Source: a virus
Virus genome (UHGV): UHGV-0300374
Direction: 5' to 3' (one strand)
Length of the DNA: 64,000 nucleotides
Part shown: one piece after another, positions 32,129-38,724 of the stretch
Position numbering within the stretch: position 1 is the stretch's first letter
Layout: each line of letters begins with the position of its first letter
Translations under genes and position numbers: made by a program
Notes under the pieces: model-generated
The model's database searches: none
Told to the model about the DNA's origin: nothing
What the model saw: the letters and a program-made list of their open reading frames with translations, nothing else

Positions 32129-32377
32129 TTAGTTATAATCTTGTTTGTTGTAGTACAGGGAGACGATTTTTTCTCCCCAATAGTGATAAGTATAACCATC
32201 CTTGAGAACTTCTTGTTTTGTTTCCTCCCAGAACTCATCCGAAGGATTATAATCTTTGATGGTCTGACTGATAAGACCTTTCACCATTTCAAAGGCGTTA
32301 TCAGTGCCTGCAATGTCAAATTTAACATCCAGAGAGGAAAAACCGAACTCGTTAACAGTAGCGCGGATAGTTGCCAT
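32129..32377 (-). CDS. hypothetical small protein (leader-cassette gene)
   Basis: ORF track, 82 aa; ATG directly preceded by conserved leader. Confidence 0.5.
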   Translation of the reverse strand: MATIRATVNEFGFSSLDVKFDIAGTDNAFEMVKGLISQTIKDYNPSDEFWEETKQEVLKDGYTYHYWGEKIVSLYYNKQDYN

Positions 32378-32469
32378 TTTTGAATCTCCTAGTTTAAGGG
32401 TTTTATTTAATGGGGAGGTTATCGCCTCCCGTTGATTAGTAATTTACTGCATATTGGCGTATGTTGCAA
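32378..32469 (-). promoter_or_regulatory. leader cassette, family B (promoter / stem-loop / RBS)
   Basis: Minus strand: TTGCAA-N17-TAAATT, then hairpin GGGAGGCG..CCTCCCC variant, then CTAGGAGATTCAAAATG. Confidence 0.45.
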
Positions 32470-32707
32470 GCCTTTTTTCGTTGTATTTTGTAAGAATCTC
32501 ACAAGATAAAACATCATATTTTGTAACAGCTTTGCCTTTGTCGAGGTCAAAGAATCCAAATGATTTACCATCTTTGAATCCGACAACTTCGTAAGATTCT
32601 TTAATGATTTCACCATTGAACAAATCGCTTTCGATACGGTGGAATAATGCTACATCCTCTTTGTCGGTTGCAATTTGTAAAAGAGTGGTCAGTTCGACGT
32701 GTTCCAT
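32444..32707 (-). CDS. hypothetical small protein (leader-cassette gene)
   Basis: ORF track, 87 aa. Confidence 0.5.
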   Translation of the reverse strand: MEHVELTTLLQIATDKEDVALFHRIESDLFNGEIIKESYEVVGFKDGKSFGFFDLDKGKAVTKYDVLSCEILTKYNEKRLATYANMQ

Positions 32708-32794
32708 TTTGAATCTCCAGTTTAGGATTTTATTTAGTGGGGGAGGTCATCCCCCGTTGATTGACAATTTACAGACTTTTGATTGTCTCGTCAA
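32708..32794 (-). promoter_or_regulatory. leader cassette, family B
   Basis: Minus strand: TTGACG-N17-TAAATT, hairpin GGGGGATGACCTCCCCC, ...CTGGAGATTCAAAATG. Confidence 0.45.
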
Positions 32795-33299
32795 TATCTT
32801 TTTCAATTTCTCTTAAAGTTTTTTCTAAGTTCTTGATATTCAGCATTAACCCCTCTCCCAGTGTCTTAGCGTAACCATTTGGGCGATGGTCATAAAGCTC
32901 GATTTCTTCCACTTCGTAAAGGCTGACATTGAAGCCCCCTACCCCGTAGGCTGTGGATGAAGTGCCTTCCGGTGCTTTGTAGTACTTATTGAGATTCTTT
33001 AAAGAGCGCTCGTAAGCCATACGATAACCGTTTAACACTGTTTTAGTGCAATCTCGTACACCTTCACACTGTACCGCATACTTTTCTAAGAACAGCGGGA
33101 GGAGTTCCGCTACCGCTTGCATGAAGTTCGATACTACAACGGTAGAAACATTACGACGATGAACGTAATAAGCCCCGTTTTCTGATTTAGTGATAGTTGC
33201 GAAATGTTCACCATTGCAACGGAATTCATAGGTATCTTTTACAGGCTTTGACATGACATGAATTGAACGGATGTAGTTGATAGCTTTGAACTTGTTCAT
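32769..33299 (-). CDS. hypothetical protein (leader-cassette gene)
   Basis: ORF track, 176 aa. Confidence 0.5.
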   Translation of the reverse strand: MNKFKAINYIRSIHVMSKPVKDTYEFRCNGEHFATITKSENGAYYVHRRNVSTVVVSNFMQAVAELLPLFLEKYAVQCEGVRDCTKTVLNGYRMAYERSLKNLNKYYKAPEGTSSTAYGVGGFNVSLYEVEEIELYDHRPNGYAKTLGEGLMLNIKNLEKTLREIEKDIDETIKSL

Positions 33300-33393
33300 T
33301 TTAGAATCTCCTAGTTTAAGGGCTTTGTTTAGTGGGGAAGTTCATTCCCTCCCCGTTGATTAGTAATTTACTTGTTTTGATATCTGATTGCAA
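33300..33393 (-). promoter_or_regulatory. leader cassette, family B
   Basis: Minus strand: TTGCAA-N17-TAAATT, hairpin GGGGAGGGAATGAACTTCCCC, ...CTAGGAGATTCTAAAATG. Confidence 0.45.
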
Positions 33394-33523
33394 GCAATTT
33401 TTTAAGCTTATCTATAAAGAAATCTTTTAAGTGAATCCCTTTTAGATAAACCCCCTCGAACAAAGTTACCAATGTCAATGGGTATTGTCAACACTTTTTT
33501 AAAAGTTTTTTATAAGTTATTGA

Positions 33524-33865
33524 TTAACTGATGAATATTTTTTCAGGCTTTACATAGCTGATACGCTGACTTTTTAGCAGGTCATCCCAGATTAACGCGG
33601 CGATATGGGCATAACCGGATTCACGTAAAAGTTTCATTGTTTTACTTCTCGTTTCAAAACGGCTTGCATAGTACTCACTATTCAGTGTCGTTTTATTCCC
33701 TTCGTTGTCTACATGGATAATCTGCATCACTTGAAAGGGGCTTGTGTCCTCGCCTTTATTCCACTGTTCAAAGTATTTTAGGCACTGCATAGGTGACATC
33801 TTATCACTGACCTGAGTTGACCAAGATGCGCCAGCTTTATCGGTAATTACGGTTACATAAGCCAT
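33524..33865 (-). CDS. hypothetical protein (leader-cassette gene)
   Basis: ORF track, 113 aa. Confidence 0.5.
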   Translation of the reverse strand: MAYVTVITDKAGASWSTQVSDKMSPMQCLKYFEQWNKGEDTSPFQVMQIIHVDNEGNKTTLNSEYYASRFETRSKTMKLLRESGYAHIAALIWDDLLKSQRISYVKPEKIFIS

Positions 33866-33958
33866 TTTTAGATTCTCCAGTTTAGGACTTTATTTAGTGG
33901 GGAAGGTCATTCCCTCCCCGTTGATTGACAATTTACAGATTTTTATCAGGCTTGTCTA
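33866..33958 (-). promoter_or_regulatory. leader cassette, family B
   Basis: Minus strand: TAGACA-N17-TAAATT, hairpin GGGGAGGGAATGACCTTCCCC, ...CTGGAGAATCTAAAATG. Confidence 0.45.
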
Positions 33959-36891: not shown

Positions 36892-37181
36892 GGTGTTTCC
36901 TCTTTACGTGATACTTTGCCATTTACAGTTATCTCATAGGATTCTAATAAATCGCTTTTAGACTTTACAGGACTTTTAAAAGTATCATCATAAATATTAA
37001 CTTGCAATACAGGCTTTTTATATTCCCTACAACTATTCCATAAGCAAATCACTACACGACGGCCTTTTATTTTGCCGTGTAACCATTCCATAACATCATG
37101 ACTATTCCTTGATGTTTCAATGAAATCAATTTTGTTGAGTAATTTGCTTATACTTTCACGGACTCTATTTGATAATTTCAT
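36885..37181 (-). CDS. hypothetical small protein (leader-cassette gene)
   Basis: ORF track, 98 aa. Confidence 0.5.
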   Translation of the reverse strand: MKLSNRVRESISKLLNKIDFIETSRNSHDVMEWLHGKIKGRRVVICLWNSCREYKKPVLQVNIYDDTFKSPVKSKSDLLESYEITVNGKVSRKEETPC

Positions 37182-37271
37182 TTTGAATCTCCTAGTTTAA
37201 GGGTTATTTTGATAAATCTCTTTATCTGGGGCTATCATATCAGCTTGTTAGCCCCGTGTAAAGAGGTCTAT
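37182..37271 (-). promoter_or_regulatory. leader cassette, family A divergent variant
   Basis: Hairpin GGGGCTAACAAGCTGATATGATAGCCCC; RBS CTAGGAGATTCAAAATG. Confidence 0.4.
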
Positions 37272-37784
37272 TTAGTTCTTAAAGATATTCATCACTGAAT
37301 CTTTTAATGCTTCCAAGCGTTCTAATACTTCAGTTTCTGCGTCTGAATTGTTCACCTCTTCTTTTAGTCTATCCTCTAAATCATCGCCGTCACTATAGCA
37401 CCAATCAAAGGCATATCCTAGATAAAAACTCTCTAAAACCGTGTTGCCATTTGCATCGATAACTTTCGCGGCAAGGTTGTATTCTGAAGCCTCTAAATCT
37501 CTTTCTAGTTCTTTCTGTAAGCTGGTGTAAGCCTCTTTTGATGGGTTTTCCCGGCCTTGTTTTGCATAGTCACTTGAAAGCTGTTTAAGGCTGTAATGCA
37601 AAGGGATTGCATATTTAAAATCATTATGCTGACAGTTAGGATTTTTAACAGTCACACCGCCTTGATGGTCGTTTGTAAACTCCCAATTATCGAGATTATG
37701 GCTTGCTTCGTAGCAATTTACCGCTTCGTAGATGATGGAAAATTTTTCTTTTACAACTTCAAAGGTAGCGTCTACAGTTTTCAT
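37272..37784 (-). CDS. hypothetical acidic protein (leader-cassette gene)
   Basis: ORF track, 170 aa. Confidence 0.5.
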   Translation of the reverse strand: MKTVDATFEVVKEKFSIIYEAVNCYEASHNLDNWEFTNDHQGGVTVKNPNCQHNDFKYAIPLHYSLKQLSSDYAKQGRENPSKEAYTSLQKELERDLEASEYNLAAKVIDANGNTVLESFYLGYAFDWCYSDGDDLEDRLKEEVNNSDAETEVLERLEALKDSVMNIFKN

Positions 37785-37869
37785 TTTAGAATCTCCAGTT
37801 TAGGATTTAGTGGTAAAGCTCTTTATCTGGGGCTTAAGATATCAACTTTTAAGCCCCCTGTAAAGTACT
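37785..37869 (-). promoter_or_regulatory. leader cassette, family A
   Basis: Near-identical to 34799-34885 copy. Confidence 0.45.
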
Positions 37870-38163
37870 TTATTTGTTAATTTTCAGCTTTGCATAACTT
37901 CTCATTGTACGAATGGGGGATGTTAATGCTACGCGTCTAATGTATGCCTTTTTCGTGTATACATTTGTCTTCCCGATAGTGTTTACACATGTAAAAAGGT
38001 TTATCGGTGAATTTTTTAACTTCAACTGTTTATCAACCTTCACGCCCCACCTTACAGCAGATTGTTTTCCGTTGTCAACCACTTTCCCGCATAACTTTTT
38101 AGCCATGATACGAGCGTCATCACGAGTCTTTGCGGTAATTACAACGTTTTTGATAATAGCCAT
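37870..38163 (-). CDS. hypothetical basic small protein (leader-cassette gene)
   Basis: Start moved to ATG 38163 (MAIIKNVV...), which abuts the conserved leader; ORF-track start 38178 lies inside the leader. Confidence 0.45.
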   Translation of the reverse strand: MAIIKNVVITAKTRDDARIMAKKLCGKVVDNGKQSAVRWGVKVDKQLKLKNSPINLFTCVNTIGKTNVYTKKAYIRRVALTSPIRTMRSYAKLKINK

Positions 38164-38249
38164 TTTTAAGTTCTCCAATTTAGGATTTAGTGTTAAAGCT
38201 CTTTATCTGGGGCTTACTTTATCGAACTATAAGCCCCTTGTAAAGTACT
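38164..38249 (-). promoter_or_regulatory. leader cassette, family A variant
   Basis: Hairpin GGGGCTTATAGTTCGATAAAGTAAGCCCC as in the 35928 copy. Confidence 0.45.
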
Positions 38250-38633
38250 TTATTTGTTAATTTTGAAGATAGTTACATAACCATCGCTGCCGATGATTTG
38301 TGATGCTCCAGCTTTTTCTACTTGATAGCCCATATTTTCAAGATGGTAAACAGCATCATCATAACCATATGCGCCGCCCTGATAACGTCTCTTATCACAT
38401 CTTACTAATACCTTTCCACGTCCTGCCAGTGCATTTAGTACGGCTTTTTCACTTGAAAGTGTACCATCTAACATGGTTGCCGTGTAATGGTTGATTCTAT
38501 TCCCGTTTACATCATACTTAAAATTGAATGCGTGAACAACGATAATGTTACCTTTAAAATTTTCATCAAGTGACTTCTCCAGTGCGTTGCGAAAGTTGTC
38601 TTTGTTGATGAATTTAGGTGCACGATATGCCAT
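38250..38633 (-). CDS. hypothetical protein (first gene of leader-cassette array)
   Basis: ORF track, 127 aa. Confidence 0.5.
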   Translation of the reverse strand: MAYRAPKFINKDNFRNALEKSLDENFKGNIIVVHAFNFKYDVNGNRINHYTATMLDGTLSSEKAVLNALAGRGKVLVRCDKRRYQGGAYGYDDAVYHLENMGYQVEKAGASQIIGSDGYVTIFKINK

Positions 38634-38724
38634 TTTTGAATCTCCAGTTTAGGACTTTATTTAGTGGGGAAGGTCATTCCCTCCCCGTTGATGCAAATAC
38701 TAGATAACCACGTTCAAAGAGTCA
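38634..38724 (-). promoter_or_regulatory. leader cassette, family B
   Basis: Minus strand: TTGACT-N17-TAGTAT, hairpin GGGGAGGGAATGACCTTCCCC, ...CTGGAGATTCAAAATG. Confidence 0.5.

Follow-up and report, generated by a model that had tools for sequence, protein, structure and literature searches.

What organises a dense run of small genes, each standing behind a near-identical leader, in the viral genome UHGV-0300374, and why does this run differ so much between relatives? In the 64,000-nt stretch of this genome that we analysed (the window), 16 minus-strand open reading frames (ORFs) of 52 to 180 amino acids span positions 32129 to 38633, or to 38746 with the leader of the first gene included; we number them g1 to g16 in the direction of transcription. 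We consider it likely that this array is a set of hyperplastic accessory genes carried as early regulatory and recombination cassettes, which work in the manner of the promoter-early-stem-loop modules (PeSLs) of T4-like phages. Each small ORF would form an expression cassette with a standard leader, and the whole set lies between two canonical terminators.

Full leaders precede 13 of the 16 genes and fall into two families, A (six copies: g2, g3, g4, g8, g10, and g11) and B (seven copies: g1, g6, g9, g13, g14, g15, and g16) (Table 1). An earlier note on this DNA, made from the letters alone, had described about 16 small genes behind modular leaders of two families, a partial copy from 36286 onward, and an unrelated leader at 34190. 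That inventory holds, the partial copy being the ribosome-site module of g7 and the unrelated leader that of g12, with a hairpin of its own; the leader sequences quoted there were also correct, while the protein lengths, given as 45 to 180 amino acids, are revised to the range above. Pattern searches allowing up to 3 mismatches returned the ribosome-site module nine times, the A hairpin six times, and the B hairpin five times, all within the array and on the minus strand, against 0.00 expected from shuffled sequence. A covariance model of family A recovered exactly six copies at 74 to 89 bits, with the opposite strand scoring 31 to 39 bits. GGAG stands 8 to 9 nt before the ATG in 13/13 leaders, the ribosome-site module is either CCTAAACTGGAGATTC or CCTTAAACTAGGAGATTC, 5 to 6 nt before the ATG, and an A/T-rich tract lies upstream of each -35 hexamer. 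In a search of Rfam only tRNAs reached the gathering score, and an E-value search of the array gave a single chance, subthreshold match to a miRNA precursor on the wrong strand.

A megablast search of positions 32000 to 39200 against 50,697 phage records returned 259 matching records, all of them Felix O1-like myoviruses at 86 to 95% identity, with Escherichia coli, Salmonella, Shigella, and Citrobacter as hosts. By sequence similarity the window is a Felixounavirus of the subfamily Ounavirinae; it also contains 26 tRNA genes at 14.6 to 19.7 kb. The two intrinsic terminators that bracket the array are the only minus-strand terminators found in a consensus scan and correspond to t13 and t23 of phage Felix O1 (Whichard et al. 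2010, PMC3185647).

Table 1. Features of the array and related elements in the window (modules 1 and 2 are the two ribosome-site modules; hexamers are given as -35, spacer length, and -10)
Feature	Position	Strand	Remarks
Canonical intrinsic terminator, upstream of array	39083..39124	-	3' of macro-domain gene; Felix O1 t13 equivalent
g1 leader, family B	38634..38746	-	A/T-rich tract, TTGACT-17-TAGTAT (38725-38697), hairpin GGGGAGGGAATGACCTTCCCC, module 1 CCTAAACTGGAGATTC
g1, 127 aa	38250..38633	-	phrog_4495, unknown function; variable, missing in Felix O1, ASO1A, and LF82P5
g2 leader, family A	38164..38249	-	TTTACA-17-TAAAGT (38244-38216) nested in three-part hairpin; module 1
g2, 97 aa	37870..38163	-	phrog_5089; true start ATG 38163, not TTG 38178
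g3 leader, family A	37785..37869	-	TTTACA-17-TATCTT with TG (37864-37836), hairpin GGGGCTTAA..TTAAGCCCC
g3, 170 aa	37272..37784	-	phrog_4190; Felix O1 ORF16, maximal at 5 min
g4 leader, family A variant	37182..37271	-	TTTACA-17-TATGAT (37262-37234), GGGGCTA..TAGCCCC hairpin, covarying lower stem, module 2 CCTTAAACTAGGAGATTC
g4, 98 aa	36885..37181	-	phrog_4401
g5, 110 aa	36559..36891	-	phrog_4375; N-terminal hydrophobic helix; 7-nt overlap with g4, no leader
g6 leader, family B	36470..36558	-	TTGACA-17-TAAATT (36562-36534), g5 stop TGA within -35; hairpin; module 1
g6, 52 aa	36311..36469	-	no PHROG; variable cassette
g7 short leader	36286..36310	-	module 2 only; the duplicated module flanking the g6 insertion
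g7, 90 aa	36013..36285	-	phrog_3436; true start ATG 36285
g8 leader, family A	35928..36012	-	TTTACA-17-TAAAGT (36007-35979)
g8, 134 aa	35523..35927	-	phrog_4327; Felix O1 ORF20, maximal at 5 min
g9 leader, family B	35422..35522	-	TTGACA-17-TAAATT (35513-35485), hairpin, module 1
g9, 82 aa	35173..35421	-	phrog_9030; variable; order relative to g10 swapped in phage ASO1A
g10 leader, family A	35088..35172	-	TTTACA-17-TATCTT (35167-35139)
g10, 67 aa	34884..35087	-	phrog_3623; B leader in most relatives
g11 leader, family A	34799..34883	-	TTTACA-17-TATCTT (34878-34850)
g11, 180 aa	34256..34798	-	phrog_3303; homologues only in Felix O1-like contigs
g12 leader, unrelated to A and B	34190..34255	-	hairpin GCCCCTTACAGGGGC, then TTTT and GGGAGG before ATG
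g12, 77 aa	33956..34189	-	phrog_4640; hydrophobic N-terminus ending in Cys
g13 leader, family B	33866..33955	-	TAGACA-17-TAAATT (33958-33930), g12 stop TAG within -35; hairpin; module 1
g13, 113 aa	33524..33865	-	phrog_4318; in all 11 arrays; Felix O1 ORF21, maximal at 5 min
g14 long leader, 224 nt	33300..33523	-	A/T tract and TTGACA-17-TAACTT, ~100 nt conserved, B element (TTGCAA-17-TAAATT, hairpin GGGGAGGGAATGAACTTCCCC), module 2
g14, 176 aa	32769..33299	-	phrog_4725; in all 11 arrays
g15 leader, family B	32708..32794	-	-35 TTGACG within g14 coding end; -10 TAAATT holds g14 stop; hairpin GGGGGATGACCTCCCCC
g15, 87 aa	32444..32707	-	phrog_7022; variable
g16 leader, family B	32378..32472	-	-35 TTGCAA within g15; -10 TAAATT holds g15 stop; hairpin GGGAGGCGATAACCTCCCC; module 2
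g16, 82 aa	32129..32377	-	phrog_4559; in all arrays whose fetched locus extends to g16; uncalled in SUT_S920 (ASO1A ends before g16)
Vestigial family A core GGGGCTAAATAGCCCCAGATA	32098..32118	-	after last gene, directly before terminator, no gene behind
Canonical intrinsic terminator, array-closing	32071..32090	-	Felix O1 t23 equivalent
Related composite outside array	44432..44483	-	stop codon, TTGACA, hairpin GGGGCTTTGAAGCCCC wholly within spacer, TAGAAT; upstream of gene ATG 44398

The seven B copies of the window align in one fixed order: a -35 hexamer (TTGACA, TTGACT, TAGACA, TTGCAA, or TTGACG), 17 variable bases, TAAATT (TAGTAT in g1), 10 bases ending in ATCAAC, a hairpin, ACTAAAT, and a ribosome-site module, in agreement with the earlier description of this family as a TTGACA-like hexamer, 17-bp spacer, TAAATT, and hairpin. 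Every copy keeps the T and G of the -35 and the TA...T of the -10, positions on which sigma-70 depends most. The spacer changes in sequence but never in length (17 nt), even in g15 and g16, whose -35 falls within the upstream ORF. Stop codons are embedded in these hexamers, TGA in TTGACA, TAG in TAGACA, and TAA in TAAATT. The -10 and the stem are separated by 10 nt in all B copies; if host sigma-70 RNA polymerase starts about 7 to 8 nt past TAAATT, the mRNA would begin 2 to 4 nt before the 8-bp G/C hairpin. In E. coli, the hairpin of the ompA 5' untranslated region is a 5'-terminal stabiliser, and the B hairpin, at that distance from its predicted 5' end, would have the geometry known to protect from 5'-end-dependent decay. 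By this analogy it is probably a stabiliser too, followed by one of two interchangeable ribosome-site modules. Some 50 B variants keep a stem of 6 to 8 bp, mostly through paired indels and G.U pairs; Mooglevirus and the leader of gene x14 instead have GGGC..GCCC or GGGGC..GCCCC stems at that position.

The B hairpin (for example, 35455-35475, minus strand) also contains GGAGGGAATG, a Shine-Dalgarno-like sequence with an ATG in the loop; its 5' arm resembles a Shine-Dalgarno sequence and its 3' arm (CCUCC) an anti-Shine-Dalgarno sequence. ORF calls in Felix O1 and MET-P1-301 sometimes begin at this loop ATG, and the ORF list of the window extends g2 and g7 to an upstream TTG or GTG. A leader peptide encoded by a 6-codon mini-ORF at the loop ATG was rejected: the mini-ORF is not conserved, since many loops read ATAA.

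For family A the earlier note had described only the hairpin. A consensus scan also places TTTACA-17-TAnnnT in 6/6 copies, three of them with an extended -10 TG, and in each the promoter overlaps the hairpin. In relatives, 50 distinct A variants all retain TTTACA and begin the -10 with TA; its remaining positions vary (TATCTT, TAAAGT, TATGAT, TAGGAT, TAAGAT, TAGTAT, and TACAGT), and this TA, in the loop, always stands at exactly 17 nt from TTTACA. The spacer contains the 5' arm of the hairpin, and the 3' arm comes after the -10. The hairpin had been described as a perfect 9-bp stem; this is so in three copies, the other three carry variants, and in all of them it is only the top of a longer structure. 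Folding of read-through RNA lengthens the stem to 6 + 5 + 9 = 20 bp, in three parts, with a 3x3 internal loop and one mismatch. In the lower part of the stem, UAAAGU, which starts with the upstream stop codon, pairs with GCUUUA, and CUUUA, which covers the -35, pairs with the UAAAG of an invariant AGATAAAG box.

The predicted transcription start of family A is the A of AGATAAAG. RNA from the nested promoter would thus begin at AGAUAAAG, where the upper stem has ended, and lack the hairpin, whereas read-through RNA made from upstream would include it in full. In the latter the hairpin may serve as a 3' protective or processing structure, possibly an RNase III-type substrate. The early genes of phage T7 are separated by RNase III processing hairpins, and family A shares their geometry: an imperfect stem of about 20 bp (roughly two turns) with an internal loop, placed between early cistrons, with no U-tract, and able to leave a protective 3' stem. 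The T7 sites differ in having no promoter, whereas family A combines a predicted promoter with putative cleavage, and the two share no sequence or Rfam match. Genes before an A element (g1, g2, and g10, near 38250, 37870, and 34884) were also seen to share their last codons (..KINK* or ..KNNK*), and the A repeat AAAATTAACAAATAAAGTAC extends into the upstream coding sequence, doubling as the A/T-rich tract for the -35.

Are these hairpins RNA structures or DNA palindromes? Aligning and folding the leaders, as the earlier note had proposed, yielded two families with conserved hexamers and covarying hairpins. In the upper stem of family A, 93.6% of cells are paired across the 50 variants, against 58 to 61% with the partner slid by one; one pair is C-G in 28 variants, U.G in 22, and C.A in none, and in Erwinia phages (Kolesnikvirus) one G-C pair becomes U-A. 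The lower stem, across 95 variants, is 90% paired in register and at most 53% when slid, with one pair that is G-C in 74 and U-A in 11. Over the full 20-pair structure, 20 diverse sequences are 95.2% paired and four pairs change on both sides. The covariation score of 0.160, compared with 0.079 in shuffles and reached in 0/500 of them, is indicative only, as the variants are related sequences and such statistics overstate significance. The sense strand folds more stably than the antisense in both families (-12.1 versus -10.2 kcal/mol for A and -10.8 versus -9.7 kcal/mol for B). Judged from these alignments, A and B hairpins show compensatory changes across three Ounavirinae genera, and the evidence favours structure in transcribed-strand RNA over a DNA palindrome.

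We regard as very unlikely the idea that the inverted repeats, which overlap the A promoters and adjoin the B promoters, are operators at which a dimeric phage protein shuts off early transcription. The A palindrome does cover the spacer and the -10, and both arms shift together between genera (GGGG/CCCC to GGTG/CACC), as co-evolution with a protein could also bring about. However, the U.G pairs break DNA symmetry while keeping RNA pairing, folding favours the sense strand, the loops differ in length and sequence, and the B stem has been swapped for unrelated stems at one and the same place.

The hairpins could also be terminators or attenuators, as in PeSLs, which insulate the cassettes by halting or weakening transcription from upstream while an adjacent promoter restarts it. 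Stem-loops of the GGGG...CCCC type from PeSLs of phage RB49 terminated transcription in reporter assays (PMC2839356), the A hairpin stands where the upstream ORF ends, ahead of the predicted start, and in the GenBank record of phage ASO1A three B elements are labelled as a promoter with a WebGeSTer-called terminator behind it. The ASO1A labels also count, as an independent reading of promoter plus hairpin, in favour of the cassettes. We nevertheless find this account possible but doubtful. No U-tract follows any A hairpin (the next bases are AGAUAAAG) or any B hairpin (ACUAAAUA), as the earlier note had correctly observed, and the minus-strand terminators of the scan lie only at the array ends. 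Furthermore, the B hairpin is downstream of its own promoter, where an efficient terminator would silence its gene.

Alternatively, the array could be one long operon transcribed from the g1 (and g14) promoter, with leaders that supply ribosome sites and REP-like hairpins and with incidental -35 and -10 matches. Canonical terminators at the array ends only, the 20-bp A stem formed in read-through RNA, and the absence of a promoter of their own before g5 and g7 are all in keeping with it. So is the frequency of promoter-like matches in this A/T-rich region, 30 overall against 22.5 +/- 4.8 in shuffles. The consensus scan, however, flags 6/6 A and 5/7 B promoter sites, all with 17-nt spacers, and TTG and TA...T remain fixed at exactly 17 nt while the bases between them vary, in 13 copies and about 100 variants from three genera, including cases with the -35 in coding sequence. 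The TA in the A loop, always 17 nt from TTTACA, is likewise not needed by a plain hairpin loop. We therefore hold the single-operon account to be improbable.

The proposal that each cassette is also a unit of recombination was examined in ten Felixounavirus arrays compared with that of the window (11 arrays in all). Coverage of 80% or more of the array at a single place is reached by none of the 259 matching records, whereas 210 of 278 records reach it for the 7.2 kb next to the array (rIIA/B to the macro-domain gene); the array is thus not the invariant block that the earlier note had set against its own idea, though it is largely collinear. It ranges from 9 genes in Felix O1 to 18, in collinear order. 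In LF82P5, g1 to g10 (3,741 nt) are replaced by two other small ORFs (388 nt), and in ASO1A g9 and g10 occur in reverse order. Only g13 and g14 were called in all 11 arrays, with g16 present wherever the fetched locus extends to it. Chained BLAST alignments showed that every discontinuity starts 0 to 6 nt from an ATG and ends either in the last 2 to 7 nt of an ORF or inside the leader that follows, so that all joints between relatives fall at leaders; the joints overlap by 22 to 35 nt, and the crossover can therefore not be placed within the repeat.

Leader type tracks position rather than gene. Across 58 loci, g1 has a B leader as the first gene of the array and an A leader behind another gene (12 of each); g10 has an A leader in the window and B elsewhere; and g7 takes the B leader of g6 where g6 is missing. 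Ribosome-site modules assort independently of hairpin type, and in some genomes a private hairpin variant occurs twice (before both g3 and g8 in Felix O1, for instance), which points to gene conversion. The 335 leader-driven ORFs of these loci fall into about 20 families, and their variation is mainly presence or absence, not free shuffling. Hence the earlier suggestion that the repeats could drive cassette shuffling stands in part: gain, loss, and swaps coincide with repeats, but order is largely collinear and the cassette pool small. As near-identical direct repeats, the leaders would allow homologous recombination to delete, insert, or reorder ORFs precisely at ORF boundaries with expression signals intact, and this best explains the cassette exchange. 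As a separate observation, the 11 g6 copies from the various loci all encode an identical protein, in contrast to the diversity of the other cassette families, and g6 is flanked by a duplicated ribosome-site module; it may represent the recent spread of one cassette.

Outside Felixounavirus, Mooglevirus KMM4 and Kolesnikvirus vEam_PM_27 share this layout downstream of the macro-domain gene, with diverged stems and, in the Erwinia phage, a diverged Shine-Dalgarno sequence too. Multicopy A matches in IMG/VR were found only in contigs of 84 to 94 kb; single A matches in unrelated viral contigs, returned by a broad pattern scan that was too loose, were dismissed as chance.

This distribution bears on a further explanation, that the repeats have no regulatory role and spread from gene to gene as selfish miniature mobile elements, of a MITE-like kind or as recombination sites resembling integron attC. 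Family A is an imperfect palindrome of about 60 nt with TAAAGnnCTTTAC on both flanks, near-identical copies occur several times per genome, and identical variants occupy two positions (Felix O1 g3 and g8). Nevertheless, the register to the upstream stop and downstream ATG is fixed in every copy, the flanks pair with covariation, unlike duplications, and multicopy occurrence is limited to contigs of Ounavirinae size. Integron arrays do resemble this one in having tandem small ORFs, imperfect palindromes between them, and variable content; they have an integrase, attC cores, and promoterless cassettes, whereas here each cassette has its own promoter-like site, the array leaders hold no attC R'/R'' core sites, and family scans of the array ORFs found no integrase domain. 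These virulent phages are not known to encode a transposase or integron integrase, and we give the selfish-element explanation hardly any credence. All four alternatives are less consistent than regulatory and recombination cassettes with the conserved hexamers, the strand-biased wobble pairs, and the fixed stop/start register, while the terminator and operon accounts are compatible with such cassettes and not mutually exclusive with them.

How close are the cassettes to PeSLs? The earlier note had remarked on the resemblance, which holds for the way in which the cassettes appear to work but not for module order or lineage. Both PeSLs (Arbiol et al. 2010, PMC2839356; Comeau et al. 2014, PMC4122927) and the array leaders are intergenic and combine an A/T tract, a sigma-70-like -35 and -10, a GGGG...CCCC stem-loop, and a Shine-Dalgarno sequence with ATG. 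Both occupy hyperplastic regions of small ORFs of unknown function, mark the joints where close relatives differ by an insertion, deletion, or replacement, and include degraded half copies; the vestigial A core behind g16 resembles the "half PeSLs" described in T4-like phages. In PeSLs, however, the stem-loop is upstream of the promoter (PMC4122927), whereas here it is downstream (B) or wrapped around it (A). The leaders show no sequence similarity to PeSLs and belong to Ounavirinae, not T4-like phages; because module order and lineage differ, we do not count them as PeSLs by membership. Peculiar to the array are two discrete families, two freely assorting ribosome-site modules, and stop codons within promoter hexamers. 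For PeSLs, experiments have demonstrated promoter and terminator activity as well as mini-circles that arise when adjacent elements recombine (PMC2839356), while the array leaders are known here from sequence alone.

A second comparison is with morons, the independent promoter-gene-terminator units of lambdoid phages described by Hendrix and colleagues. Morons and the array genes are alike as accessory genes with their own signals, dispensable and variably present in collinear relatives. Morons occur singly at scattered sites, with true terminators and signals unrelated to one another, whereas the array has about 16 tandem units with standardised, repeated signals.

An extension of the cassette reading, speculative and in our judgment unlikely, is that family A is a dual-route element: RNase III cleavage in the internal loop and the nested promoter would both yield the same AGAUAAAG... 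5' end, leaving a protective 3' stem on the upstream mRNA. Together with B leaders and assorting modules, this would amount to a lineage-wide system of standard parts with recombination at three nested module boundaries, and, if true, would let Ounavirinae plug accessory genes in and out.

Several points weigh against the reading of the array as regulatory and recombination cassettes. The -10 hexamers are weak, with 4/6 consensus matches, and the total of promoter-like matches given above is not far from that of shuffled A/T-rich sequence. Covariation is confined to a few pairs, and its shuffle statistics are inflated by relatedness, as noted. The proposed roles of the hairpins (5' stabiliser and RNase III-type site) are drawn from analogy only. 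Gene order is largely conserved and the cassettes come from a pool of about 20 families, and breakpoints at ORF boundaries would also follow from selection against broken genes alone. Furthermore, Felix O1 ORFs 17, 19, and 23 are maximal at 25 min by reverse transcription-PCR (RT-PCR), and the literature searched holds no mapping of start sites or RNA ends for Felix O1-like phages.

The expression data come from the Felix O1 genome paper (Whichard et al. 2010, PMC3185647), in which semiquantitative RT-PCR found ORFs 13, 16, 20, 21, and 22 maximal at 5 min and ORFs 14, 17, 19, and 23 at 25 min. We considered a temporal split between A and B promoters, and these classes give it no support. Two direct repeats listed in the same paper are the A and B elements: one of 57 bp (CTTTACATGGGGCTTAAAAG...), found in the intervals of genes 15/16 and 19/20, and one of 39 bp (TTGACACTGGTTTTTAGATAGATTAAATTACACATCAAC), in those of genes 18/19 and 20/21. 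The paper reports them solely as repeats, not as promoters, hairpins, or recombination joints, and calls the mode of transcription unknown (PMC3185647). Our literature searches returned nothing usable on transcriptomics, essentiality, or anti-defence in Felixounavirus.

What the cassettes encode is in line with the earlier remark that the proteins belong to no recognised family. The 16 ORFs match no Pfam or NCBIfam family at curated cut-offs, and 15 of them match PHROGs, all of unknown function, with g6 matching none. The structure search proposed in the earlier note was run on g11 and g14, and both AlphaFold2 (AF2) models were uninformative: the g11 model was poor (pLDDT 57; best Foldseek match against PDB at E = 0.68), as was that of g14 (pLDDT 64; best fold match at E = 0.12). 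Relatives of g14 carry a precomputed PF26821 assignment, a family not mentioned in the literature searched. The CFHGT at the N-terminus of g11 was considered as an ADP-ribosyltransferase motif and rejected, with homologues only in Felix O1-like contigs and no support from the fold. Single-linkage clustering connected g7 and g10, which are not homologous; we tentatively think that the link stems from ORFs called at the B-loop ATG. The hydrophobic N-terminus of g12 ends in Cys (LILSIC) and is weakly lipoprotein-like, without a basic n-region, and g5 has an N-terminal transmembrane-like helix; both may be envelope associated. Since g5 overlaps g4 and has no leader, it is probably translationally coupled to g4. 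Host-takeover or anti-defence roles would be pure inference, for which the dispensability of most of the array is the sole support.

Felix O1-like phages serve in Salmonella typing, biocontrol, and therapy, and the cassettes would provide a testable map of about 13 early transcription units. They would also explain why a stretch of 4 to 7 kb varies most in otherwise collinear genomes, and they mark some 20 dispensable, separately expressed small genes as a natural place to seek host-takeover and anti-defence functions. Evolution with a regulatory cassette as recombination linker, as in PeSLs, would then not be peculiar to T4-like phages but would have arisen with a different architecture in another myovirus lineage. 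Compact leaders that hold a promoter, an RNA structure, and a ribosome site in 85 nt could become portable expression parts and safe insertion points for phage engineering.

The surroundings of the array yielded further observations. The long leader of g14 measures 216 to 224 nt in most relatives and carries an extra, strong-looking promoter about 130 nt upstream of its B element; the roughly 100 nt between the two promoters could be a leader RNA or small RNA, and the leader gave no match in Rfam. Directly upstream of the array lies a macro-domain gene (39154-39939, minus strand; PF01661), a homologue of T4 Tk.4 that is labelled "phosphatase" in many records and is kept across Ounavirinae and far beyond (2,809 matching phage records). 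A non-coding stretch of about 430 nt runs from the upstream terminator to the first array promoter, and within it, at 38905-39080 (minus strand), the 19-nt motif TCATTTYNRAANYGTGCAG occurs as four direct copies (0.28 expected by chance), followed by a C-rich tract, CCCCTCTCCCCCTCTTACTCCCCCTCTCCCC. At 0 mismatches the motif has no other occurrence in the window, and the copies may be a set of regulator binding sites.

Just past the array terminator, positions 30900 to 32070 form a non-coding region of about 1.2 kb with 12 copies of CTTGTTAR at 31177-31601 (minus strand) and repeats of the TATAAAGAGCT type. Its counterpart in relatives measures 1.7 to 1.8 kb, and several GenBank records were opened there; we regard it as a candidate origin or packaging region. 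A position of the array at the genome end was considered, and the gene numbering of UAB_Phi87 suggests otherwise. Finally, the composite upstream of the gene at 44398, which scores 22 bits with the A covariance model, shows the same design of hairpin and promoter nested together as family A.

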